A stretch of DNA of 64,000 bases from positions 1 to 64,000 of the IMG/VR virus record IMGVR_UViG_3300037512_001279, one strand, 5' to 3'. The notes beneath the pieces were generated by a model. That model had not been told where the DNA came from, searched no databases, and worked only from the letters and a program-made list of their open reading frames with translations. The position numbers were made by a program, and so were the translations under genes. How positions within the stretch are numbered: position 1 is the stretch's first letter; every line of letters starts with the position of its first letter. Below, one piece after another: positions 10,216-64,000 of the stretch. The stretch is from a virus. Taxonomy: Duplodnaviria > Caudoviricetes.

Positions 10216-10558
10216 TTTGCATAACAGAACCTGCAACGCCTCTTAATAATGCGTACCACTGCAGGTCATTGAAATTTAGACCGATGATGCTTTAGGCATA
10301 TGGTGCAAAACCGCATCGGTCATTTGGTGTTCCGCCACCATAAGAGCGAGCCTTTAAACTACTGTTTGCCCATTACCATAAAAAGAAAATGGGCTTTACT
10401 TAGCTCATCTGCCATGTGTAGAAGGAGTATCGGAGTCGTCTTATTTAAGGCGCCTCTTGTTTTTTATAAGGAATTGCGGTGGATGTCTTCGGACTACACC
10501 TATAGGCTATCTGATGAGTCGGATAGCCTATTATATTGGAAATAAAGGAGGATTTGCC

Positions 10559-11563
10559 ATGGCTAACAGAGGTCGTGTATATAACCGCGTATTCACCGAA
10601 GATTTATGGCTTAAGGTGAATCCGGTAAATAAGGAAATTATGAATGATTTTTTGGACGAATACAGACAGAGAAAGAAATCTAAAGCAACAGTGTCTGCAT
10701 ATCAATCAGATCTTCAATTAATCTTTTGTATTATTGCGCAGAAGTTTGATAACAAGTCGGTACTTGAAATGACAAAACGCGATTTCAGATCGCTTAGTCT
10801 TATGTTTACTGACGAGTTTGGTCTTTCTCCTGCAAGAACAAATAGACTGAAAAGTTCAATCAATAGTATGCTCACGTTTTGTGAAGAGGAAGAAGACTAT
10901 GATTACGACATTAATTATGCTAAGAAGGTTAAAGGTATACCTAACGAGCGCGTAAAGGATGATGACGATGACTTTTTCTTTACGTTCGACGAGTTCATAA
11001 AGGTTCGTGATATATTGGTAGAGCAAGGTAGGTTGCAGCTTGCTGTTCTTTGGTCTGTTGGTTTTGATTCTGCAGGAAGACGCAATGAACTTCTACAGAT
11101 TGAAAAAACGGGGCTTCTTGACGGCAACAAGACAAACATTGTTGTTGGTAAACGCGGCAAGAAGTTCGCTCTTGTGTATTTAGATGACACAAAGGAATTG
11201 ATCAGAAAATATCTTGAGGAGCGTGGAGAAGATAATATCCCTTCTCTTTGGTATAAAACCGTAAATGGGCAGAAAATGCCGATCCAATCGGAGACAATTT
11301 ATGACCGCATAGTGTCAATTTCTAAAATACTGTCAGACGTTCGCGGTGAGGAATGTAATATATTCCCACATACAATGAGACACAGTAGACTTGAGTGTTT
11401 GGCTCAAGGGACTGACACAAGACTTACGGACAATGACGGGAATCCAAGAAAGTTCCCATTAGAGCAAATACAAGTGTTTGCGCATCATTCAGACGTAAGC
11501 ACTACTCAGGGATATTTAAAAGATCACTCAGAAGACACTATAAACGAAATGTTTGGCTTTTAG
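10559..11563 (+). CDS. tyrosine recombinase (XerC/YomM-like)
   Basis: GRRNE (R), GKRGK (K), HTMRH (HxxR), HHSD.STT.GY (H, Y); AAAGGAGG RBS before ATG 10559. Confidence 0.9.
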   Translation: MANRGRVYNRVFTEDLWLKVNPVNKEIMNDFLDEYRQRKKSKATVSAYQSDLQLIFCIIAQKFDNKSVLEMTKRDFRSLSLMFTDEFGLSPARTNRLKSSINSMLTFCEEEEDYDYDINYAKKVKGIPNERVKDDDDDFFFTFDEFIKVRDILVEQGRLQLAVLWSVGFDSAGRRNELLQIEKTGLLDGNKTNIVVGKRGKKFALVYLDDTKELIRKYLEERGEDNIPSLWYKTVNGQKMPIQSETIYDRIVSISKILSDVRGEECNIFPHTMRHSRLECLAQGTDTRLTDNDGNPRKFPLEQIQVFAHHSDVSTTQGYLKDHSEDTINEMFGF

Positions 11564-40489: not shown

Positions 40490-43400
40490 ATGGCTGGGAA
40501 TACTGTTAGTATAGGTTTTGACTACAGAAAACAATTAGAAAAAGCCTGTAAAGATATAGAGCAATCTTTTGATAAAGTAATATCTTCGAATGATTATGGC
40601 AAAGATTTTGAAAAACAGATAAAGAACTTTAAAACAATGATTGCCGACATGAAAGATGATCTTTCGGATTCTTTTAAAGCTTTGTCAGACGGGAAGTTAA
40701 GTACGGAAAAATTTGAATCCTTTAAAGAGAACGTTAATAAGAAACTTAAAAACATAAATGATAGAGTTTCAGATTTAACGACAAACATAGATCAATTAAA
40801 CAAGGCATTAGGTTTTACCGGAGATAGCGTTGATTTAACAAGTGCTATTAATCAATTTAAGGAGCTTCAAGAATATATAAATACAAACAATGAAGCCGTT
40901 GAAAGGTTATTAAAAACACTTCAAACAGTTGATGGAAATCTTGAAATAAATGTTCCAAAGTTTTCTATTGATGAGGCAAAAGCACAGATAAAGCTTCTAA
41001 AAGGAATGATTAATGATTTAATGCAGGGTTCAAAAGAAGATATTTCTAAAAAACTTGCATCAATGACATCTAGCCAAATAGAAGTACTTTATTATGATTT
41101 ATCAGATAAATTTTCTGAATTGCAAGAGAAAAAAGACGAATTATTAGGAAAGATAAATGCAGCGCCAGACCAAAAGGATGGCGCTGTTTTAGCATTTAGG
41201 TCTGAATTGTCGCAGGCAGAAATTGAGATATCTAAATTGGCAGAAGACATAGAGGAAATATTTCAGTATGCCGGAGAAAGAAAATTCAAGTGGTTTGATT
41301 CAACCAAAAACGATAAAACAACAGTAAAATTTAGAAATACAATTTTAGAAATTAATAACAGTTTTGATGAAATAGAGACTAAATCACAAAAAATAATTAC
41401 TGATTTGCAAAGATATGTTGATTCGTTTTCTAATACTACTGCTAAAGTATCAGACAAACTAGAGGCTAACACTGGCGAAGTAAATGTTCAAGTAAAAATA
41501 GCTACTAGAAATGCCACTCTTATAAATGAATTAAAAGATAAAATAGAAAAGTTGCAAGAAGCATTAAATAATAAACCTCTAATTTTACCTGTAAAAATGG
41601 TTGTATCAAATGCCAGAACTACAAGCGAAGACCCATTAAAAACTAGCAAAGATGCAATAAATAAGGCAAGGAAGAAATTAAAAGAATCAACTGAAGATGT
41701 AGATATGGCAGATGCAATTCCAAAGCAGACATTGAAACAGGCTCTTATTAATGCTGAACGTGCTGCGAAGGAATCGTTTACTAGAATCCAAGAAATCTTT
41801 GATAAAACTCCTATCAACATTCATTTAACTGTTCCAGAGGAAGAAATACAGAAAATATCTGATTCTGTGTTTAGTGAAGACGGTAAAACTAAAATTGACA
41901 TTTCAAAACAAATAGATAATGCAAAAAAGAGAACGGATGAATTAATAAAATCTCTTAAAGAGGCAGATGAGACTGCATCAAAAACATTAAAAAAGAATAA
42001 ATATGCAGGGCTTGCTGAAGAAATACAAAAAAGCTTATCAGGGCTTGAAAGTCTTAAAGACATTCTTACTGCTATTCGTGATTTAGAAAGCACTCTTGGC
42101 AGAGCTACAAATGTAGCGACGAATAGTGATATTACTACTCAATGGAATAAAGTAAAGTTTTGGTTTGATTATATTTCTGATGAATCTGACAATATTAACT
42201 TTAATAAGCAAAGAGATCAAATAAATACATTGATGTCTGAATATCAGAAATACCTAAAAATGGGTGGACAAAATCCTCTTAGAAATCTTACCGATAATGA
42301 AGAAACAATAAGAAAATTATATAATAGATTCAACAAATTAAAAGACGTATCAGGAGATAAAATTGATGTCTCCGGAGAAGTTAAATCATTCAATGAAATA
42401 ACGGGTGCGGTTGATGAGTTAACCGTTGCTATTGGTGAAAAGAAAGTAGATGCAATAAATCAAGAAGCTTTGGCAATGGAAAGTGCTGCAGAAAGAGAAG
42501 TCAAAGCAATAAAATCAATAGACGACGAAATATCAGCGGCTCATTCTTCAGGGAAAAAAAATAAGCAGGATAAAGAATTAAAGAAAGAAAATATCCAAAA
42601 CATAGATGAATCTTCTTCTAAAATTACAGAAGAGTCTTTTGCTCTAGATAAAACTGCTGAATCAGCTGCGAATGCTGCAGAAGCAAAAGACAAATTTAGA
42701 AAATCTAATGAACTTCTTGCTACGAGTGCAAAAGATTCTGCAGATGCGTTGGCTATTGAAACTAATGCCCTGCAAGTTATTGAGAATATTGATTTAGATC
42801 ATAATTCTGATGAATTTAGAAATGCAGCAGAAGCCGCAAGAATGTATTGTGACGGGCTTGGCGAAATAGCTTCTATTACAAGAACATCCGGAACATATAA
42901 TACATATAACAGAAATACAGGCGAAATGGAACAAATGCTAAGAACATCGTACAGAGTTACTGATGTTAATGGCAATAGTCGTACGTTTAATCCACAAGGC
43001 AATATAATTGGTGCTAAAGATATTATAAATGCTACTGCCGCATATAGAGAATACTTAAAGATACAAGAACAAGTTTTTGCGATTAATAAAAAAGAGGCAT
43101 CTGGACAAGAATTATTAAATAGAGAAATTTCAGATAGAGAAAGTTTACTTAGAAAGCTTTCAGAACAAGAGGAATTAATTAATTCAATTGAGTCTAGAGG
43201 CCTTGAAAATTCTGAACTTAGAGAAGAAGTTGAAAGGCGAAGAATCGCAAATCAAAGGACTATTCAACAAATACAAAAAAATAGTATCTTAAACGGGCCT
43301 CTTGAAGGTTACGAAAGACAATTCTCATCATTAAATACAGATAAAAATTTATCAAAACAAACCGACGAATATAGAAGCAGATTGTTAGAGATTAATGATT

Positions 43401-44377
43401 TACTTCAAAGATTACAGGCATATAGAGACATAGATATATTTACAGATGAAGACGTTAATGATGTTACAAATTTAAGAACGCAGATAGATGGTTTATTTAA
43501 TGACTTATCCAACATGGATAAGGCTGCGAATAAGGCAAAGTCTTCCAGCGTACTTTCAAACATTACCGACTTCATAGCAAAAAATAGCAGGTTAAATTTG
43601 TCAAAACAAGGTAAGGAATACCTTTCTCAACTTGAAGAGTTACAGGATAGACTAAGAAGGGTTGGTCTTACTTCTAATGACATTCAAGATGTTGTTGCTG
43701 AGTTTAACAGATTAAAAATACAAATTACAGAAGCAGGGCTGGCTGGAAGAAGCTTTTTTGACATTATGAAGTCAAAAGCTTTCTATATGGCTGCTGAATA
43801 TCTCGCAAGGTATTTTAGTTTGCAAGATATTATTCGCTATATTAAAACTGCTGCCCAAAATGTTATTAATCTTAATACTCAGTTTACTGAGCTTGCAAAA
43901 GTTTCAGATACAAGCATTAAAAAACTCAATGCAGACTTTAAAGCATACGCAGACACAGCAAAAGAACTTGGTAGTACAATCACCGACACAATTTCTGCAA
44001 CGGCAGACTGGGCTAGAATGGGATATAATATTCCTGATAGCAAAGAACTCGCCCGTGTTGCTTTGATTTATAAGAATGTTGGCGACGGTATTGATATAAG
44101 TGCTGCAAACGAATCACTGATTTCTACATTACAAGGTTTCCAAATGGAAGCAAAAGACGCGTTACATATAATTGACGTGTTCAACGAAACTTCGAACAAC
44201 TTCGCAATTAGTTCGGCTGGAATTGGTGAAGCGTTACAAAGAAGTGCAGCTTCGTTTAATGCTGCTCATACGAGTCTTGAAAAATCTGTATCACTTGTTA
44301 CAACAACAAATACTGTATTACAAGATCCACAAGTTGTCGGAAATTTGTGGAAGACCATGAGTGCTCGAATTCGCGGT
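40490..44377 (+). CDS. tape measure protein exon 1 (join 40490..44377,44783..45319,46875..52058; 3202 aa)
   Basis: Long coiled coil ending in TP901-type TMP core (..WARMG..NNFAIS..SARIRG). Confidence 0.85.
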
Positions 44378-44782
44378 AAATTTGTGCCGTTTTATAGCGA
44401 AAGCTATAATGTGTGTTTCGAGTAAAAAATAATTACACACATAGATAACTATATAAGTCAAAAGATGATGGGACATCAGAGACTTAGGAAAGACTTATGA
44501 TTTTTATATATTTTTTAATTGGATGAAGAAGCCTGATTATTTAGCACTACAATTATAAAATATAAAAATCATAAGTATCCCAAGAGACTGCAGGACGCAT
44601 GTGGTAACATATGTGTTGAAGTTATCCCACTCTCCTATTATAGGAAATGGTAATATACAGTCCGATCCTACAATATAATCCCAAATTAATAAAATGAAAT
44701 GTAGGAATTTGGTAGAAATACCAAATCGCCATATATTATGGTCATAAAACTATTTCTCTGTATAGTTTAAGTAACAGAATTG
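44378..44782 (+). mobile_element. group I intron A in TMP (ORF-less, 405 nt)
   Basis: P1 CGGT/GCCG (U-G), P10 TTTGT/GCAAA, P3 GATAACT/AGTTATC, P4 TAAGTC/GACTTA, P7 GACTG/CAGTC, terminal G 44782; splicing gives ARIRG-AKTELEE. Confidence 0.9.
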
Positions 44783-45319
44783 GCAAAAACAGAGCTTGAA
44801 GAATTAAATGAAGAAGAGGATGAATTTACTGAGTCTACTTCTAAATTAAGAAGCCTTGTAAAAGGCCTTACTGGATTTGATATCATGCAAGATGAAGATA
44901 CATTCAAAGATTTGTATGATATTATTATTGGCATTGGTAAAGAGTGGAAAAATTTAACAGACATAGAGCGTGCTAGTCTTGGAGAGGCATTGGCTGGAAA
45001 AAGAATGGCGAACGGTCTTTACGCAGTGCTTGATAATCTAGATACTCTAGAAAAGGCATATAAAACTGCATCTGAATCTGATGGTTCCGCAATGCGTGAA
45101 CAGGAAAGATATCAACAGTCAATTCAATATTCAATTGACAGAACAAAAGCTTCTATTGAAGAGCTGTCAAACTCTTTACTTAATTCTGATTTACTCAAAT
45201 TCCTAGTTGATGTTGCAAACGGATTTGTTAACATTACAAATGAAGTAGTAAAATTCTCCGGTCTTCTCGGAACTATCGGCATCGGTGCTGGAGCATTTGC
45301 CGGAATAAAAAATCTCGGT
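44783..45319 (+). CDS. tape measure protein exon 2
   Basis: AKTELEE..IGKEW..L...E.LAGKR TMP-core continuation; no RBS of its own. Confidence 0.85.
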
Positions 45320-45376
45320 AGGAGTAAAAAGTTTCTCCTCAATTCATTGATGATTTGAAAATTTTTCAAAAATCTC

Positions 45377-45405
45377 TTGCATTTTATATGTACAGAGAAT
45401 ATAAT
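45377..45405 (+). promoter_or_regulatory. sigmaA promoter of candidate antitoxin RNA
   Basis: TTGCAT-N17-TATAAT. Confidence 0.7.
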
Positions 45406-45411
45406 TATATA

Positions 45412-45512
45412 AAAAGAAGAGGTAGTACCGTAGGACAAACGGTTCACCACAGTTTATAGTTACTGTATCAAATTAGCAACCACATACCTTGGGGAAGGGC
45501 GGTTGCTTTTTT
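45412..45512 (+). ncRNA. candidate type I antitoxin sRNA (about 100 nt)
   Basis: Lies between a sigmaA promoter and an AGCAACC..GGTTGCT+T-run terminator, antisense to the 3' UTR of the small peptide gene. Confidence 0.55.
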
Positions 45513-45518
45513 GATGGT

Positions 45519-45611
45519 TTATTTTTTGAAATGATCTAAGTACAAGCCGTAGATTACAACAACCGTCTGAACAGTTGCTACGGCAAGTGCTAAGATAGCT
45601 ATTACCATCAT
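45519..45611 (-). CDS. candidate type I toxin, 30-aa TM peptide MMVIAILALAVATVQTVVVIYGLYLDHFKK
   Basis: Translated by hand (below ORF-track cut-off); hydrophobic helix with basic C-terminus; GAAGGGG RBS; overlapped by a leader ORF in another frame. Confidence 0.65.
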   Translation of the reverse strand: MMVIAILALAVATVQTVVVIYGLYLDHFKK

Positions 45612-45767
45612 AGTACTTTCGTACCCCTTCGTTCTTATTTGCCATAGGCATCACTCTCCTTTTATTAGCGAAAAGTATTCCTTTGGCAGTTCTTTGGTTA
45701 AAGAACAACCAAGCGACTGAAGGGTGAACCGCTTACCCGTTTTAGTACTATCCTCTTCTTGTGCATT

Positions 45768-45796
45768 ATAATACTTTAAAGCATTCAAATTGTCAA
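45768..45796 (-). promoter_or_regulatory. sigmaA promoter of toxin mRNA
   Basis: TTGACA-N17-TATTAT on minus strand. Confidence 0.7.
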
Positions 45797-46179
45797 TAAA
45801 AAATATGCCGAGGCTCACGTCGTTTTATCCAGTAATGGAATTTTTGTCGTGAGTGAGTGGATACGCTACCACAACATAAACACCCAATATGATCCTAATG
45901 GATGCGCATGAGCAAACATGCGCCTGGGAAATGACATAATCCATTACTACTCTCCCGCTTTGGGTTTGTGAAAATGTAATGGATGTCATGGTCAGCAGGG
46001 AAGCTTCTGTTTACAGGAGAACCCCCACAGTAATGATATGGGTGGTAATATTAGCCTGAAACGACTAACATTACAATAGACATTCGAAACTAACCGACAT
46101 GGCGGTAATTTGCAGGAGGAAGTACTCTCCTCTCCATGAATTGTTGGGGCAGATCGGACTGCCTGAGTATGTCCAAAGT

Positions 46180-46209
46180 AAAAGCAACCACATAACGCGG
46201 TTGCTTTTT
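46180..46209. terminator. bidirectional intrinsic terminator ending the antisense cargo genes
   Basis: AAAAGCAACC-ACATAACGC-GGTTGCTTTTT. Confidence 0.7.
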
Positions 46210-46238
46210 GAAATAAAATCAAAATTTTATTTGATAGG

Positions 46239-46538
46239 TTACATAAACTTAAACAAATATATAAAAAATACAATTATGCTTATAACAATCCATGATATTA
46301 AAAATTTCTTGAAAAATCTTATATTTTTATTTATAGTACGAAGATGTTGCGTGATTTCTTCTAATTGTTCGTAAGCATCAAACTCGTAACACTCTTCCAT
46401 TTCGACATTGCAGTCTTTGCAATAAGTATCAGGTTCATCAGATGGTAGGTTGGCATAATCATTACATTCAGGGCATTTATATCTCTTGTATTTAATCATA
46501 ATATTATCTCTCCTTATACTAAGTATAAATAATAACAA
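46239..46538 (-). CDS. zinc-ribbon protein with C-terminal TM helix (intron cargo); true start probably MIKYK near 46499
   Basis: CPEC..CKDC, C-terminal hydrophobic helix, AAGGAG RBS. Confidence 0.7.
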   Translation of the reverse strand: MLLFILSIRRDNIMIKYKRYKCPECNDYANLPSDEPDTYCKDCNVEMEECYEFDAYEQLEEITQHLRTINKNIRFFKKFLISWIVISIIVFFIYLFKFM

Positions 46539-46815
46539 GAATTATTCCGCAAATTAATTCTAAAATCGTTAAAACAAAAAAGAATTTCATCATTTTATAA
46601 ATGCCATGTACGTCTTTCTCTAAATTATATGTTTTTTCAGTTGTCTGAGTGTTGTTAATATTTTCAACAACAGCTTCCGTCGTTGCTTCTACCTCACCAA
46701 AATTCTCAAGAGATCCTCCACAAACACGACATATTGATGGAACTTTATCTTCTGGTGAGATTTTGTATTCTTTGCCGCATTTATAGCAAACATATTTTTT
46801 TATTATATCCCCCAA
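46519..46815 (-). CDS. zinc-ribbon protein with C-terminal TM helix (intron cargo)
   Basis: CYKC..CRVC, C-terminal hydrophobic helix, GGAGGTG RBS before TTG. Confidence 0.75.
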   Translation of the reverse strand: MGDIIKKYVCYKCGKEYKISPEDKVPSICRVCGGSLENFGEVEATTEAVVENINNTQTTEKTYNLEKDVHGIYKMMKFFFVLTILELICGIILVIIYT

Positions 46816-46837
46816 TTGACATCACCTCCATATTTTA

Positions 46838-46866
46838 AGTATATCAACCAACATGATATTAGTCAA
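46838..46866 (-). promoter_or_regulatory. sigmaA promoter for antisense cargo genes
   Basis: TTGACT-N17-TATACT with TG extension. Confidence 0.7.
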
Positions 46867-46874
46867 ATAGTTTG

Positions 46875-49800
46875 AAATTTTTAGGAACACTTCCACAACT
46901 TAAAACCGCAATATCTTCTATTAGTGGATTATCTACAGATTTATTAGCAAATGGAGCTGATGGTTACATAAATGCAGTTAAAGGAATGACTGCACAAAAC
47001 GCTCTTCTTGTATTGTCTTATAAGAATTTAAGCGCAGCAGAAAAGAAAGAGATTCTTATCAAGGCCGGTGTTATTTCTGCTGATCAAGAGTTAATTGGAG
47101 AAAATGCACTTTTAGCTAAGTCAAATATCTCATTATCCGGAACATTTGGTATTATTGCAAGGAAGGCTGCTATGTCTGCTGCAGCAATTTTATCCAATCC
47201 AATTACATGGCTAGTTGGTGCAGTAGCCGCAACTACAATTGCAATAAAGAAAATGAACGAAGCCGTAGAAGAAGGCAGAGATAAAGCACAGGAATTGGGT
47301 TCGGAATTTGCAGATATTTCGCAAGAGCTTGATTCTTATAAAGAAAAAATAACTGAATTAACAGACAAAATAAAAGACCAGAAATCTTCAATCGAAACCG
47401 TGGTTGATTCAAGAAGACAGCTTGGTAAAATTCAGGATGAGCTTGTAAATAAATACGGTCATGAAGCAGAAGTAATTAATGCTGTTACAGATGCTATTAA
47501 TGGTCAGTCAGATGCAATAAATAATCTGTTTAATACAGTGTCTGCAGATGAGTGGCAAAAGGTAATGAACCAAATTAATAACACTGGTTTTTGGGCAAAT
47601 GCGGCGAACTGGCGTGACAACTACAAAGATCAGGTTGATCGTATAGAGCATGAATTATTTAATGAAACATATTCATTAACCGCTGCTGATAGCAGAATAT
47701 CTGTAGAACAAAGAAAATATTTTAAGAGCCTGCTTACTGAAAGGGGATGGACATATAATGAAGATAATATGTTCATGCAGTACACCGGAAGTAGAGAAAA
47801 AGCATTAAATGATATTCTTGATATTCAACAGGAGTTATCAAAGAAATTTGGCGATGATTTATCAAAAGTTCTATCTAAGACATTAACAGATTCATATAAC
47901 AGCATTAATGAAGTCTACGAAAAGTATAAAGAATTCAAAGATCAGTTTGTATTAAATTCTGTAATATTTAATCCACAGTACATGTTACAAAATGGTGAAG
48001 CAAACGGAGATTACCTTGCAAATGTATTATTAGGTTTAGAGGAAGAATACGAAGCATATATTTCGGCAGCAAACGAAGATGCTCAAAAGGCTGCCCTGCA
48101 AGGTCTTGCAAATCACCTAAGAGAGATTTTCAGCGAAGAAAATATTCCACAACTTGTTAAGGATTACATTAAACAATTATTCCCAACAATTTTTACAGAA
48201 GAAGATACAAAAATCACTCAAATAGAAAACGCAAAAAATCTTGCTAGAAATAAGGCATACGACAGTTTATATGCTGAAGCTTCTGGCTCTATGAATCGTA
48301 CTGATCAAGAAAAATTCAGAGAAGCTACTGGATTTGACAAAAAATACAATGCATTCATAGAAGAATATAAGATTGACTCCGAAGAAGAACTTGAACTTCT
48401 TGATGCATATATTGCAAAATATAAAGATCTTGATAAGGCATTTAGCCGGTATGCACAGGATGTAAAAACAGAATCACCTGTTCTTGATTACGAAGGCAAA
48501 AAAGACAGATCTAATTATACCGCCGACGATTACATAGAAGAAACAAAGTCTAACATCATTTCTCTTGGTGACGCTCTTAATAAACTTCAGACTAAAACAA
48601 TGACGTCTGCAGACAGAATGGCATTGTTTAAAGATTTTCCTGAGTTAGAATCAAGAGCAAACGACCTTGAAGAAGCGATTGGCGAAAAACTCGTCGGAGC
48701 AATTGATACATTAGAAAAGACAACCGGTAAGCAGTTAGCGCCTGAAATTAGACAGGGACTATTTGAACTTACTAGCGGCGCACTTCAAGCAAACAGAACT
48801 CTTAATGAAACGTTTAATACAATTAAAAACAGTTCAAGTGTTCTTAAGGAATTTAAGACAACTCTTAAGAATGGCGATCCAATTACTGAATCACTACTCT
48901 CTTCCATCGCAGGATTAAGTGACGAACTTGACACCTTAGTCGCAGGATTCTATGGCGGCGTTGTAACAGTTGAAGAGCTTTATGATGCCGTTGAAAAACA
49001 GCGTGAAGTTGATTTTGAGCGTTACAAGCAGTCTTACATAATGAAGCAGGCGCTCGATGAGAATTACTATAAAAATGCCATTGCGGGGCATAAAGAAGTA
49101 GTAAAACTGTTTAATGAACAGTATAAGATAGACCTTAGAAATTATACAAGCTATCAGATGGCGAAGTCTGAAGTTCAAAAGAAGATTCTTGGTCAGAATA
49201 TGAAGATGATATCTTTATATTATGACATTGAACAGATGCAATATACGGATGCCTATGCTAAACTTGAGAATGAAGCAAAGGCTTCTGTTGGACATTCTTA
49301 TGGCGAATATACAAAAGTTCGTTCTCTAATAAACGAATATAAACAAGCCATTGATGACCTTAATCAAATCGGCTGGACTGACTTCTTGGATGAACTTGAC
49401 AAGATGACTCTTGGCGATTTTGACAAGATTTCGGGTTCTACTAAGGATTATAAGGAACTCTTCGACTTCTTTGAGCGTCGTCTCGAAATTATTGATCAAT
49501 CGCTTAATAAGCTCGACGCATCACTTGAAGAAGTAAACGGCTCCATGGCAAAGAACATTCTTATTGCCGGTAAGATGAACATCGTGTCGAAACAGATTCA
49601 GGACTACACTTCTGCCCTCACGATGTACGAAAATAAGGCAAATCAGGAGCTGTCAAAACTCTCTGCAGACATGCAGGAAAAGATTAAGAACGGCTCTGTA
49701 AGCATTACTCAGCTTATTGGCGAGAATGGCGAAGAAGTTAACAAGACACTCGAGGAATACAAGAAGTGGGCAGACAAAGTAAACGACTGCAACGTTAAAC

Positions 49801-52058
49801 TTCTTGAGCTGCGTGAAACTCTGCGTGACCTCGCGCTTGAGAAATTCAACAACATTGCACAGGATTACTCCGACCAGTTTGACATTCTTGGTTCATCTAA
49901 CGACCTAATTGAAAAACAGATTTCATTGTTTGAAGAGGCAGGTCAGTTAATCGGTCGTGCGTTTTATGAAACTCAAATCGAGGCATCTCAGAAACAACGC
50001 ACAATTCTTGAGAAAGAAAAAGCCGCGCTTATTAAAGAGATGACGTCGGCGCTCTCTTCCGGTTACATTCAGAAGGGCAATGATGAATGGCTCGAAATGG
50101 CGAAGAGCATACAGGAAGTTGATTCCAGTATTCTCGACGTTGACCAATCCATAGAACAGCTTCAGAACTCCTTACTCGAACTCAACGACAAAGTATTTGA
50201 ACGCCTGCAGAATACGTTCTCAGACATCAATTCTCAGCTTTCCAACATTGTTGGAATGATCAGTGACGTTGACGTATCTGACGAATCTGGCGTATGGTCT
50301 GATGAAGGTCTTACTCAGTTAGGCGCATATGCACAGCAGTATGAGCTTGCGAGACACAACGTTGAGAAATATGAGGAAGAGATTCAGAAGCTCAATCAGT
50401 CCTACAGCGACGGTTTGTACTCTACTACGGAATACATTGACAAGCTCTCCGATCTTGCTCAGGCACAATGGGAGCAGGCCAATGCTGCAGAAGATGCAAA
50501 GAAGTCCATACTTGAACTTAACAAGGCAAGGGTTGAACTCGTAAAAGAAGGAATTCAAAAGCAGATTGACGCTTACAAGGAACTTATTGATAAGCAGAAA
50601 GAGGCTCTTGACCAGGAGAAATCCATCCGCGATTACGAGAAGACCATTGCAGAAAAGAATAAAAACATCAACAAACTGCAGAATCAGATTAACCTGTTAA
50701 GGAATGATGATTCTGCCGCGGCAAACGCTAAGAGAATTAAGCTTGAACAGGAGCTTGCTGATGCCAAGGCTGACCTTGAGGAAACTCAGTATGATCATTC
50801 AGTAGAGGCACAGAAGGAAGCCCTTGACAAGCAACTTGAAGATTTTGAAGATGCAAGGCAACAGGAAATTGATGAGTTAGAGGAATACCTGAAAGACGTC
50901 GAAAGGGTTCAGAAGGATTCGTTTGAAATCATCAAAAAGAATACCGACAAGATTGCAAAGCAAATCGAGAACATTGCCAAGACTCACGGCGTTGTTATTT
51001 CTGAAGCGATCACTAATTCTTGGAAGTCAGGTGAAGGGGCAATCGCCTCTTACGGTACTGCACTCTCATCTGCTTCCAGTGGATTTATTCAGCAGATCCA
51101 CGAGATTGAAATATATCTCGTCGCACTTCAGGATGAAGCTGACCTAACCGCAGACAGACTTGTTGGAATGTTGTCGGCTAAGGCTGATAACCTTCTTAAT
51201 GAATTTAATGCTGCAAGAGATTCCGAGAATGAACTTATCAGGGCAACCAATCTTCTTAATGAAGCATTGATTAAGACTCTTGAGGGTAATTATGACATTA
51301 GCGGAATTATTGGTGCGTTAAAGGAAGTTCAAAATCAGGTTGACGAAACCAAAAATAAGTTAACTGGTTCAACAAGCACAGGCAACGTTTCAAGTTCTAC
51401 TCAAAAAGCAATTCAGGATACCGTTTCTGCCGTTGCAAACGCAGGAGTCAAGGTTATTCCTGACGAACAAGTTAATGCAATAAAGAAACAGCAGGAACTT
51501 GATGCTCTCTCGTTTGATTATTACTATTACTGGAAACCAAAGACTCATGAGTATACGGCAGAGTATAAGAAACTTTCAGATGCCGTAAGATCTGGAGACA
51601 GTCAGGCTGCAATAGTTAAGAATAAGGTTGACAATGCCGTAGCAAGTTATCTTGCGAAGGAAGCTGCGATACTCAAGAAGTATGAAGGATTTGCCACCGG
51701 CGTACACAACCTTAACAGAACTCAGTTCGCATGGACTCAGGAGCAGGGTAACGAACTTGTGCTCTCTCCTACCAGAAATGCGATTCTTACCAAGCTAAAC
51801 AAGGGTGACACCGTACTTACTAAGGATCAGACAGACAACTTGTTTAAGTTAAGCAAGATTGATCCTGATTCCATCTTTGGTAAATTCGGCAAGATCAACG
51901 GAGTTGCAAGAGTTGAAGCTCCCGTACTTAGCATTGGAAACGTTCTTACCGTTAATGGAAACATTGACGACACGAATGCAGAAAAGATGAAGACCATTGC
52001 AATGTCTGCAATCAACACGGCCTTCAAGAAGTTCTCTAGTGAAATCGTTAAAAGATAA
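46875..52058 (+). CDS. tape measure protein exon 3
   Basis: NPITW.. hydrophobic segment then long coiled coil ending FATG..AW.QE.G.E; no RBS upstream. Confidence 0.85.
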   Translation, partial: KFLGTLPQLKTAISSISGLSTDLLANGADGYINAVKGMTAQNALLVLSYKNLSAAEKKEILIKAGVISADQELIGENALLAKSNISLSGTFGIIARKAAMSAAAILSNPITWLVGAVAATTIAIKKMNEAVEEGRDKAQELGSEFADISQELDSYKEKITELTDKIKDQKSSIETVVDSRRQLGKIQDELVNKYGHEAEVINAVTDAINGQSDAINNLFNTVSADEWQKVMNQINNTGFWANAANWRDNYKDQVDRIEHELFNETYSLTAADSRISVEQRKYFKSLLTERGWTYNEDNMFMQYTGSREKALNDILDIQQELSKKFGDDLSKVLSKTLTDSYNSINEVYEKYKEFKDQFVLNSVIFNPQYMLQNGEANGDYLANVLLGLEEEYEAYISAANEDAQKAALQGLANHLREIFSEENIPQLVKDYIKQLFPTIFTEEDTKITQIENAKNLARNKAYDSLYAEASGSMNRTDQEKFREATGFDKKYNAFIEEYKIDSEEELELLDAYIAKYKDLDKAFSRYAQDVKTESPVLDYEGKKDRSNYTADDYIEETKSNIISLGDALNKLQTKTMTSADRMALFKDFPELESRANDLEEAIGEKLVGAIDTLEKTTGKQLAPEIRQGLFELTSGALQANRTLNETFNTIKNSSSVLKEFKTTLKNGDPITESLLSSIAGLSDELDTLVAGFYGGVVTVEELYDAVEKQREVDFERYKQSYIMKQALDENYYKNAIAGHKEVVKLFNEQYKIDLRNYTSYQMAKSEVQKKILGQNMKMISLYYDIEQMQYTDAYAKLENEAKASVGHSYGEYTKVRSLINEYKQAIDDLNQIGWTDFLDELDKMTLGDFDKISGSTKDYKELFDFFERRLEIIDQSLNKLDASLEEVNGSMAKNILIAGKMNIVSKQIQDYTSALTMYENKANQELSKLSADMQEKIKNGSVSITQLIGENGEEVNKTLEEYKKWADKVNDCNVKLLELRETLRDLALEKFNNIAQDYSDQFDILGSSNDLIEKQISLFEEAGQLIGRAFYETQIEASQKQRTILEKEKAALIKEMTSALSSGYIQKGNDEWLEMAKSIQEVDSSILDVDQSIEQLQNSLLELNDKVFERLQNTFSDINSQLSNIVGMISDVDVSDESGVWSDEGLTQLGAYAQQYELARHNVEKYEEEIQKLNQSYSDGLYSTTEYIDKLSDLAQAQWEQANAAEDAKKSILELNKARVELVKEGIQKQIDAYKELIDKQKEALDQEKSIRDYEKTIAEKNKNINKLQNQINLLRNDDSAAANAKRIKLEQELADAKADLEETQYDHSVEAQKEALDKQLEDFEDARQQEIDELEEYLKDVERVQKDSFEIIKKNTDKIAKQIENIAKTHGVVISEAITNSWKSGEGAIASYGTALSSASSGFIQQIHEIEIYLVALQDEADLTADRLVGMLSAKADNLLNEFNAARDSENELIRATNLLNEALIKTLEGNYDISGIIGALKEVQNQVDETKNKLTGSTSTGNVSSSTQKAIQDTVSAVANAGVKVIPDEQVNAIKKQQELDALSFDYYYYWKPKTHEYTAEYKKLSDAVRSGDSQAAIVKNKVDNAVASYLAKEAAILKKYEGFATGVHNLNRTQFAWTQEQGNELVLSPTRNAILTKLNKGDTVLTKDQTDNLFKLSKIDPDSIFGKFGKINGVARVEAPVLSIGNVLTVNGNIDDTNAEKMKTIAMSAINTAFKKFSSEIVKR

Positions 52059-52137
52059 TTTATTTTTATATTTTTACGGGGCGAGGTATGAAAATTACCT
52101 CGTCCTGTTTTATGGAAAGGTGGTGAGGAAGAAATAA

Positions 52138-52941
52138 ATGGACGTATTTGGAAAAGACGCCTTAATAGGCGATTATAGATTGTCTGATCATGGATTAACG
52201 CTCTGTACTTTTAACTATGAGGATAATTATGATTTAGGCGTTACTCACAACACGGAAGAAGCATTTTTGGGCAGGAATCCAGTTCCGGTATATCTTGGTT
52301 CTAAATATTCATCCAAGCTCATGCCTACTTTCACTGTTATGCAAAAGGAATGTGTTACGGGAAGAAGAAACTTTACCGTCAACGAGATAAGGGAAATTCT
52401 TGGTCGTCTCACTGGATATCAGGGATACAAGAAGTTTTATCTTTATAAGGATGAAGTTCTTGAGAACATGTACTATAACGTACACGTCATAGACGCAAGT
52501 TTTGAAAAGGCTGGCGAAGACATCGTAGCAATCACGTTCAGTGCAGAATGTGACTCGCAGTTCGCCTGGGTTGACGAAAGCATTACTTATGAAAACGGTT
52601 CTATTGAAGAAACAATAAGGCTGCAGGTTAACTCTGACGACAAATATAACTATCTCCTTCCTACTGTGGTAATCACTCCAGATTGTGGCATTAACAGTTT
52701 TTCGATTATTAACGTTACTGATAACAACAGAGAGGTTGTAATTGACAACGTAAGTTCAGGTGAGGTCATCACCATGGACAGCAAACACAATATTATAACA
52801 AGTACAATTCCAAGGAATTTTTCTGAGGATTTTAACTATAAATTCATAAGGCTGCTTTCAGGAGAAAATGAGCTTCAGATAAGCGGGCCTTGTTCCATAA
52901 CTTTTAACATGAGTCTTCCAAGAAAGGTGGGCGTTCTGTAA
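52138..52941 (+). CDS. distal tail protein (Dit, YomH-like)
   Basis: Follows TMP; CDSQFAW, FN..F.RL..GEN motifs. Confidence 0.75.
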   Translation: MDVFGKDALIGDYRLSDHGLTLCTFNYEDNYDLGVTHNTEEAFLGRNPVPVYLGSKYSSKLMPTFTVMQKECVTGRRNFTVNEIREILGRLTGYQGYKKFYLYKDEVLENMYYNVHVIDASFEKAGEDIVAITFSAECDSQFAWVDESITYENGSIEETIRLQVNSDDKYNYLLPTVVITPDCGINSFSIINVTDNNREVVIDNVSSGEVITMDSKHNIITSTIPRNFSEDFNYKFIRLLSGENELQISGPCSITFNMSLPRKVGVL

Positions 52942-63030: not shown

Positions 63031-64000
63031 TTATGATGACAATGCTTTTTTGATTTGGGCTTGAGCCTCCTCAAAAGTCTTGTCAGAATAGTAGTAGTAA
63101 TCACGTGTGCAGTTAATATTCGTGTGTCCCATTTGTTTGATGATGAGTCTTTCGTCTACCCCGCCGTTAATAAGTTTCGTGGCATACGTTTTTCTGATTT
63201 TATGCATTGACCTTGGAGGTATTCCAAGTTTTTTACACAGTCTTAGAAGTCTCAACGTAAAACACCTGCTTAGGATTCTTTCTCCATTTTTCATAAACAT
63301 GTATTCACCGAATGGATTTTTCTTCCGTATTGTCGCAAGTATTTTTTTAGCCTCGTCATTTAATATGATCGTTCTGTTACCGGCTTCGGTCTTAGGAGAC
63401 TCTCTAACCTGGAATACGTAGCCACCATCTTTGTCCTTGAACCGTTCCTCTGTCTTTGTGATGCTCAACAAATCCCCAGTGACGTCGGAGTGCTTCAATG
63501 CAGAAAGTTCTCCTACTCTCAACCCTGTTTGAAAAACCAATAGAATTCCAAGGTCAATTAAGCTAGACCTCTTCCACAATTCGAACTCAACAGCATCGAT
63601 TTCTTCTTTTGTGAAAACCGAATCTTCATCTCGAATAACCTTTTTCTTAAAGGCTTTTCTTGACAGTTCGAGATAATCACCGAAGAAATCTTTTGCACTT
63701 ATGTCCGTGTATCCCCGTTTTTTGCCATACTTTAAAACGCCTATAATTAAGGTTCTTACACCATTGTAAGCCTTGTAAGACAGATTAAAGTCGGAAATTG
63801 TTTTCTTAATAAAGTCTTCAAGCTCTGACTCCGTCAGTCGTTGCAGTTCTACCTTGTCGAAACCAGTTTTTACAAAGTATCTTGTAAAGTCCGTCCTGTA
63901 ACGATCATATGTTTGTTTTTGTATTTCATTATATTCTAGTTTCCTGTCCACCCATTTGTCAAAAATTTCTCCAAACGTGTTCACCTGACTATGTTGGAAT
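63031..64000 (-). CDS. int: phage integrase (tyrosine recombinase), 5' end outside window
   Basis: TGLRVGEL, PKT, HKIRKT, MGH...T..YY; frame open to window edge. Confidence 0.9.
   Translation of the reverse strand, partial: FQHSQVNTFGEIFDKWVDRKLEYNEIQKQTYDRYRTDFTRYFVKTGFDKVELQRLTESELEDFIKKTISDFNLSYKAYNGVRTLIIGVLKYGKKRGYTDISAKDFFGDYLELSRKAFKKKVIRDEDSVFTKEEIDAVEFELWKRSSLIDLGILLVFQTGLRVGELSALKHSDVTGDLLSITKTEERFKDKDGGYVFQVRESPKTEAGNRTIILNDEAKKILATIRKKNPFGEYMFMKNGERILSRCFTLRLLRLCKKLGIPPRSMHKIRKTYATKLINGGVDERLIIKQMGHTNINCTRDYYYYSDKTFEEAQAQIKKALSS

Follow-up and report, generated by a model that had tools for sequence, protein, structure and literature searches.

Can a phage carry a toxin-antitoxin module inside an essential late gene? 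The question is raised by positions 45377 to 45796 of a 64-kb stretch of phage DNA (the window), which is the first 64 kb of the 121,656-nt IMG/VR virus record IMGVR_UViG_3300037512_001279. These positions lie within an insert that interrupts the tape-measure gene, and an earlier reading of the letters alone (the sequence-only reading) had described them as a type I toxin-antitoxin-like module nested in the P1 loop of an intron. We consider, with moderate confidence, that the locus is a type I toxin-antitoxin-like cassette, which would found a new peptide family and would be controlled by a 3'-overlapping antisense RNA as in Bacillota systems. The cassette is not a hok, Fst or TxpA/BsrG member. 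It appears to be under selection, because the peptide frame and the promoter are conserved and the helices covary in a diverged phage. The cassette comprises the following elements.

45796..45791 (TTGACA) and 45773..45768 (TATTAT), minus strand: promoter of the peptide mRNA, TTGACA-17-TATTAT, 11/12 match
45377-45382 (TTGCAT) and 45400-45405 (TATAAT), plus strand: promoter of the antisense RNA, TTGCAT-17-TATAAT, read directly
45412..45512, plus strand: predicted antisense RNA of ~100 nt, antitoxin candidate, from the fold
45475..45512, both strands: shared two-way terminator hairpin, with T6 on the plus strand and TAATTTGAT on the minus strand, from the folds
45414..45448, both strands: inverted-repeat arm, which is the 5' end of the antisense RNA and the 3' arm of the peptide mRNA
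45723..45760, minus strand: the other inverted-repeat arm, which is the 5' arm of the peptide mRNA
45519..45611, minus strand: open reading frame (ORF) of 30 codons for a hydrophobic peptide with a DHFKK tail, toxin candidate, MMVIAILALAVATVQTVVVIYGLYLDHFKK
45613..45630, minus strand: ribosome-binding site of the peptide, GAAGGGG (45630..45624), and a GUAC-GAAA-GUAC hairpin before the AUG
45719..45724, minus strand: anti-ribosome-binding-site element CCCUUC in the 5' untranslated region, pairing with GAAGGG
45651/45645..45460, minus strand: overlapping leader ORF of 61-63 codons, behind the strong site AAAGGAGAG (45662..45654)

The convergent promoters, the 30-aa hydrophobic peptide with its KK tail (45611..45519), the leader ORF with a strong ribosome-binding site overlapping it in another frame, and the imperfect inverted repeats at 45414-45448 and 45723-45760 had all been named in the sequence-only reading, and each was found where it had been placed. 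The minus-strand promoter was the top promoter-like site in 44300-47000. The plus-strand RNA gene of ~100 nt, for which a terminator of its own had been claimed, was likewise predicted: it would run from ~45412 to 45512, fold into three hairpins, the third of which is followed by T6 (z -4.2), and end 6 nt before the peptide stop codon. The peptide mRNA is predicted to start at the first base of one repeat arm, and the antisense RNA at the first base of the other arm or a few bases earlier; both RNAs begin with AAGAAGAGG, because each starts at one arm of the inverted repeat. Since the repeats are inverted, the two RNAs start alike and pair only via their 3' overlap, which amounts to ~40 nt when the shared terminator ends the mRNA and to ~100 nt in the case of read-through. 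Additional pairing in trans between the antisense RNA and the 5' part of the mRNA was considered and rejected, being no better than that of shuffled sequences.

The peptide was compared with the small ORFs of its own genome. Among the 862 ATG-started ORFs of 20-70 aa in the 121.6-kb genome it ranked fourth in hydrophobicity, and it was the only one in which a basic tail goes together with a hydrophobicity score of 2.3 or more. Type I toxins are defined as hydrophobic peptides of <60 aa with a predicted transmembrane segment and charged C-terminal residues (PMC6563280), and the 30 residues, the DHFKK tail and the hydrophobicity rank of the peptide agree with this definition. The predicted antisense RNA gene has the attributes of a cis-antisense gene at the sequence level, namely a promoter of its own that is kept in a homologue, a T6 terminator and complementarity to the 3' untranslated region of the mRNA.

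That homologue was found by an exhaustive phmmer search of 1.84 billion protein representatives, which returned a single protein, P0002 (E 3e-7), a 59-aa over-called ORF that matches the peptide at 87% identity over its final 30 residues. P0002 occurs on one contig only (L016, 543 nt, from an ENA metagenome assembly), and this contig carries the same cassette, which shows that the cassette is more than a product of chance. The N-terminal extension of P0002 was rejected as spurious, the frame being closed there in the window, and a search of 5.8 billion proteins with P0002, shorter lengths included, returned only the query. L016 ends in a tape-measure exon (...GAFFGIKDLG), with GGT and AGGGG on the two sides of the junction, and thus has the same insertion point, after the same codon; at its other end it stops short of the -35 box of the minus-strand promoter. 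Between the window and L016, the tape-measure exon is identical at 42/66 positions (64%) and the spacer 45341-78 at ~35%, and the identities of the antisense-RNA 5' arm, the terminator and the peptide ORF are 97%, 93% and 87%, respectively. The plus-strand promoter stands in the same place in L016 as TTGACA-18-TATAAT, which is nearer to the consensus than that of the window. Such conservation, which differs from element to element and is only ~35% in the spacer, speaks for selection acting on the elements and against a transfer of the whole in recent times.

The same comparison bears on the idea that the locus is a miniature inverted-repeat mobile element lodged in the intron loop, the ends of which would covary because one transposase reads both. 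Such an element might well have terminal inverted repeats like those seen, which are imperfect, measure 35-38 nt and share a matched change between their arms, and might likewise be far better conserved than the host exon, as the cassette is. Nevertheless, the cassette is present as a single copy, with no paralogue elsewhere in the 121.6-kb genome; scans of IMG/VR with exact or degenerate patterns of the terminator, the inverted repeat and the peptide C-terminus gave no matches; no target-site duplication is evident at 45413/45761; and conservation follows the functional elements instead of being uniform. We therefore regard a mobile element as very improbable. Relatives of the cassette were also sought in 50,697 phage records, with the peptide in tblastn and the region in blastn, which gave nothing for the cassette, and no Rfam family matched it or either of the two tape-measure inserts at E 10 (the T4 control was positive).

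Which of the overlapping frames is the coding one? In the 30-codon frame, the two copies differ by V3A, A10V, V17T and V19T (26/30 residues identical, only V/A/T swaps) and by 5 synonymous changes. The overlapping frame is open in both copies, but 7 changes, most of them radical, fall within these 30 codons, and two compensating indels shift its C-terminal 17 codons in the comparison with L016. Of the three frames, that of the peptide is conserved best. Because the overlapping frame drifts radically and has a shifted tail, the 30-codon frame would be the coding one, and the leader frame may be translated without being selected as a protein. The leader ORF as a real protein gene was ruled out by the radical changes and the frame-shifted tail in L016; it gave no Pfam, NCBIfam or PHROGs match, and a search of 5.8 billion proteins, shorter lengths included, returned no homologues, only the query. 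The public gene call at 45460-45645 (minus strand) is this 61-aa overlapping frame (P0001), and the 30-aa peptide is uncalled in the collection.

The folding of the mRNA was assessed next to its coding capacity. The whole minus-strand transcript folded with a z of -9.4 relative to shuffles. A consensus fold, drawn from only two mRNAs (those of the window and of L016), contained 100 pairs, all of which are kept in both copies and 7 of which change on both sides; 7 such two-sided changes were reached in only 3/500 shuffles, and slid controls gave 0-2. One compensatory pair lies in the 5'-3' helix formed by the repeat arms (G-C to A-U), and another lies in the 6-bp helix that covers the ribosome-binding site, where CCCUUC/GAAGGG becomes CCUUUC/GAAAGG in L016. 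The 12-nt GUAC-GAAA-GUAC sequence before the AUG is a GNRA hairpin that is invariant in both copies.

These elements suggest how the cassette could work. From the housekeeping-type minus-strand promoter, an mRNA for the 30-residue membrane peptide would be made, and it could be silenced in two ways: the CCCUUC element in the 5' untranslated region would pair with the ribosome-binding site of the peptide, and a 5'-3' helix of ~35 bp would form if the shared terminator, on its weak side, lets transcription continue (to ~45408). The convergent promoter would yield the ~100-nt RNA, fully complementary to the 3' untranslated region of the mRNA. In Bacillus, the antisense RNAs of txpA/RatA and bsrG/SR4 direct cleavage of the duplex with the toxin mRNA and its decay. 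The antisense RNA of the cassette may act in the same manner. What the sequences show is the elements, the way in which these are conserved and covary, and the bias towards one strand; we infer the transcripts, the toxicity, the RNase step, the splicing and the role of the cassette, be it prophage retention, exclusion or defence.

A membrane peptide under antisense control need not be a toxin, and the peptide could instead belong to an accessory gene of the prophage that serves superinfection exclusion, lysis timing or membrane modulation. It is conserved and membrane-like, the same insert holds other antisense membrane-protein genes with a promoter of their own and the same terminator stem, and no toxin family matched; the peptide had no PHROG match below E 0.1, and the only weak leads were holin-like clusters (phrog_7849, E 0.11; a Hol_Tox-bearing cluster, 0.76). 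What makes this alternative unlikely in our judgment is that tight silencing in several layers, with a hidden ribosome-binding site, a 5'-3' closure and a dedicated cis-antisense RNA under a conserved promoter, is the usual pattern for toxic peptides and seldom serves harmless ones (PMC6563280), and that the covariation falls exactly in the silencing helices.

The tape-measure gene in which the cassette resides lies in three pieces (40490-44377, 44783-45319 and 46875 onward), and all three align with the tape-measure protein of Brevibacillus phage Sundance, which is uninterrupted. In the closest relative, IMG/VR contig L003, the tape-measure gene is uninterrupted and exon 2 is 73% identical; the alignment with L003 gives exact bounds for the first insert (44378-44782) and shows exon 2 to end with ...KNLG, at T45319. 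That 73% was the best identity among the exon 2 relatives in IMG/VR, GTDB genomes and JGI metagenomes, all of which are uninterrupted or too distant. The second insert, 45320-46874 (1,555 nt), shifts the reading frame of the gene, and exon 3 lacks its own ribosome-binding site. That the diverged phage of L016 has an interruption following the same codon argues against a dead tape-measure gene. We hold with considerable confidence that the second insert is a group I-like intron. Its elements are listed here.

45313..45319, plus strand: last 7 nt of tape-measure exon 2 (TCTCGGT), its end from the L003 alignment; the P1 5' strand, pairing with 45807-45813 in the fold
45807..45813, plus strand: internal guide sequence GCCGAGG, the P1 3' strand, from the fold and direct reading
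45320..46874, plus strand: the whole insert of 1,555 nt, with an R-like motif AACGACTA at 46060-46067 and an S-like motif GATATTAGTC at 46855-46864
45320..45339, plus strand: splice-site hairpin AGGAG...CTCCT directly 3' of the 5' splice site, from the L016 comparison
45343..45359, both strands: left arm of an outer inverted repeat, pairing with 45784-45800 (17 nt, 82% complementary)

The 5' splice site would follow T45319 with a U.G at the splice site, and the P1 pairing was recovered in an unconstrained fold. The first eight nt of exon 3 (AAATTTTT) pair at 7/8 positions with 45799-45806 as a P10, and G46874 would be the terminal G at the predicted 3' boundary, giving an in-frame junction KNLG-KFLG. 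The motifs AACGACTA and GATATTAGTC each occur once in the 64 kb, with both strands scanned; both occurrences are in the insert, on the plus strand and in the order R then S, and the two are able to form a 6-bp P7 and are similar to the R/S regions of T4 td in the Rfam alignment. P3-P8 could not be threaded. The intron core is structured on both strands, and the attempt to assign its strand by fold z-score failed for this reason. The splice-site hairpin is AGGGG...CCCCT in L016 (90% identity), and because both of its sides change it looks like a conserved intron RNA element. The cassette stands between the 5' splice site (T45319) and the guide sequence (45807-45813) and therefore in the P1 loop, which bears out the placement proposed in the sequence-only reading. 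Our proposal is that the cassette can reside in an essential late gene without breaking it because it lies in a peripheral intron loop. Late in infection, the entire peptide mRNA would then have an antisense counterpart in the pre-mRNA or in the excised intron.

Placement in P1 raises the alternative that the locus is a structured peripheral intron RNA domain, an extended P1 kept for folding or splicing, with the peptide frame, the promoters and the terminator as by-products. The repeat arms and the outer repeat do pair in the plus strand, bringing the splice site beside the guide sequence (the left arm of the outer repeat is not conserved in L016); the plus-strand fold contains 6 compensatory pairs; and the splice-site hairpin covaries. 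When the two strands were compared, however, the plus-strand consensus was weaker, at -71.8 vs -89.2 kcal/mol for the minus strand, with 82 vs 100 pairs and with 4 vs 16 one-sided changes that keep the pair through G.U, and the invariant G.U pairs of the minus strand are A.C mismatches on the plus strand. The 5'-3' helix formed by the inverted repeat reached -45.7 kcal/mol in the minus-strand RNA and -38.9 kcal/mol on the plus strand in the window, and -45.9 vs -37.4 kcal/mol in L016. An intron domain would also fit poorly with a peptide frame that is the best conserved of three, with -35/-10 boxes that are kept in L016 though the adjoining spacer is ~35% identical, and with a plus-strand terminator, which would harm it. 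We judge such a domain to be improbable; selection seems to act mainly on the peptide mRNA and not on the pre-mRNA, because the inverted-repeat helix is stronger on the minus strand.

Several observations weigh against a toxin-antitoxin-like cassette in a group I-like intron. The -35 box of the plus-strand promoter agrees at only 3/6 positions, for which reason this promoter is missing from the promoter scan, and promoter-like sites are common in this AT-rich DNA, where they are about as frequent as in shuffles (14 found vs 12.0 expected). The ribosome-binding site of the peptide lies 13 nt from the AUG, and the strong site serves the other frame. The peptide had no Pfam or NCBIfam match at E 10 and matches no curated toxin family, and its Atlas look-alikes, which score at most 0.80, are uninformative. 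Substitutions at codon positions 1, 2 and 3 of the ORF number 2, 4 and 5, so that the third-position bias is not strong. The covariation figures are indicative and are not proof; the statistics are weak because there are two sequences only and the structure was predicted from them. Two intrinsic terminators stand on the plus strand inside the tape-measure transcription unit, and late transcription would have to pass them. Finally, RF00028 (Rfam group I) gave no match to the insert at E 10, with T4 td (E 9e-8) and nrdB (E 2e-6) as positive controls. Its silence is weak evidence, because RF00028 also misses the first insert, which L003 delimits exactly, and likewise gives no match in a tape-measure/HNH region of the Thomasclavelia phage TR-TP1 that resembles the first insert.

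The first insert (44378-44782) is 405 nt long and has no ORF. Its 3' part (44571-44750) is 72% identical to the DNA that ends an HNH endonuclease gene in the Thomasclavelia phages TR-TP1/TP2, and the TR-TP1 HNH gene with this 170-nt match stands just 3' of the tape-measure gene.

The second insert holds further cargo. Two paralogous antisense ORFs of ~98 aa lie at 46239-46815 (minus strand) between the R-like and S-like motifs, with a promoter at 46866..46838 whose -35 box overlaps the S-like/P7 motif. Both encode a CxxC...CxxC zinc ribbon and a C-terminal transmembrane helix; their family matches are only weak, and a zinc-ribbon ORF had no relatives in IMG/VR. On the sense strand, one terminator stem (AGCAACCACATA...GCGGTTGCTTTTT) appears in two copies, at 45475-45512 and, with a loop shorter by 12 nt, at 46183-46209. 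Since each antisense cassette ends in the same stem, a shared origin of the two cargo units is suggested.

The carrier phage is probably Bacillota-type and temperate. A temperate life style, which is a precondition for a role in prophage retention or exclusion (PMC7699646), is compatible with the record, because it contains three tyrosine-recombinase (Phage_integrase) genes (window 11060-11524, window 63091-63546 and record 95628-96119). Two other RNA matches were noted in the window. An abiF RNA motif at 10230-10266 (plus strand) scored 43.6 bits, over the Rfam gathering score, and is followed not by an Abi_2-type gene but by an 81-aa ORF and a tyrosine-recombinase-like ORF (10457-11563). A Moco riboswitch model matched at 52010-52138 (plus strand) with 28.2 bits, below its gathering score of 36; the match overlaps the end of the tape-measure gene (stop at 52058), extends downstream and is probably due to chance.

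To which known systems is the cassette closest? The 3'-overlap pairs of Bacillota (txpA/RatA, bsrG/SR4, bsrE/SR5 and yonT/SR6 of B. subtilis; CD0956.2/RCd10 and the phiCD630 modules of C. difficile) are the closest, together with par. The likeness to Bacillota type I systems that had been noted earlier holds at the level of predicted features, namely a membrane peptide that ends in charged residues, a cis-antisense RNA converging on its mRNA and a hidden ribosome-binding site. As in these pairs, a small N-terminal transmembrane peptide has a charged or lysine tail, the promoters are convergent and housekeeping-type, the predicted antisense RNA lies over the 3' part of the toxin mRNA, and the location would be a prophage (PMC6563280, PMC7699646); in Clostridia and Bacillus, type I modules borne by prophages are known to encode peptides of this design (PMC6563280, PMC7699646). 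Unlike in these pairs, the peptide has no sequence relation to TxpA/BsrG, BsrE/BsrH, YonT or the C. difficile CD toxins, an additional 5'-3' closure of the mRNA is predicted, and the cassette, instead of being intergenic, would lie in an intron P1 loop inside a structural gene.

The par locus of E. faecalis pAD1 (fst RNA I/RNA II) has a two-way terminator, a hidden ribosome-binding site and a helix between the 5' end and a region near the 3' end. The cassette resembles par in its convergent predicted transcripts, in a two-way terminator whose tails are T-rich on either strand, in a hidden ribosome-binding site and in the 5'-3' helix. The two differ in that direct repeats make both 5' regions of the par RNAs complementary, whereas the repeats of the cassette are inverted, and the peptide gave no Fst family match.

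The comparison with hok/mok/Sok of plasmid R1, which the sequence-only reading had also drawn, stands only in part. Common to both are the 5'-3' closure of the full-length mRNA, if there is read-through to ~45408, and an upstream frame that overlaps the toxin frame. On the other hand, Sok pairs with the mok start region at the 5' end, whereas the antisense RNA of the cassette covers the 3' end of its mRNA, at 45412-45512, past the stop codon; the peptide is no Hok and has no Hok domain, the system is Gram-positive in style, and coupling to the leader frame is conjectural.

Introns in tape-measure genes are documented (PMC2504315, PMC3706429). Like phage group I introns (T4 td and nrdB, and the tape-measure introns of Bacillus phages and mycobacteriophages), the insert is placed precisely in a conserved gene and bears ORFs in its loops. 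A U.G at the 5' splice site, an internal guide sequence, a P10 and a terminal G are further features in common, and the R/S-like motifs resemble those of T4 td. It differs from them in its cargo, which is made up of antisense, self-promoted cassettes (the module and the two zinc-ribbon membrane ORFs) and not of a homing endonuclease, in a core that escapes RF00028, and in the intrinsic terminators on its sense strand. Full-text searches of open papers and preprints found no description of a toxin-antitoxin cassette in an intron.

A broader and tentative view, to which we give a low probability, is that the intron is a safe harbour for host-expressed cassettes in an essential late gene, where the DNA is used on both strands. 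The minus strand would provide a self-silencing toxin mRNA, and the plus strand would provide the antitoxin RNA and a clamp closing the 480-nt P1 loop. The lytic phase would bring a flood of antitoxin sequence into the cell, as pre-mRNA or as excised intron, and the lysogen would depend on the small RNA alone. If this were true, control of the toxin would be wired to the phage life cycle through splicing.

At this locus, a spurious longer ORF masks a small membrane peptide, and a new, unannotated peptide family would have been replaced in gene calls by that overlapping frame. Intergenic type I pairs of prophages and group I introns carrying endonucleases are already known, and a self-promoted antisense cassette in an intron loop of a structural gene would combine them. 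Phages would thereby have a new means of bearing accessory genes while leaving their operons intact, and the locus would offer a natural case of an RNA sequence constrained on both strands. Introns may thus shelter host-expressed accessory genes.

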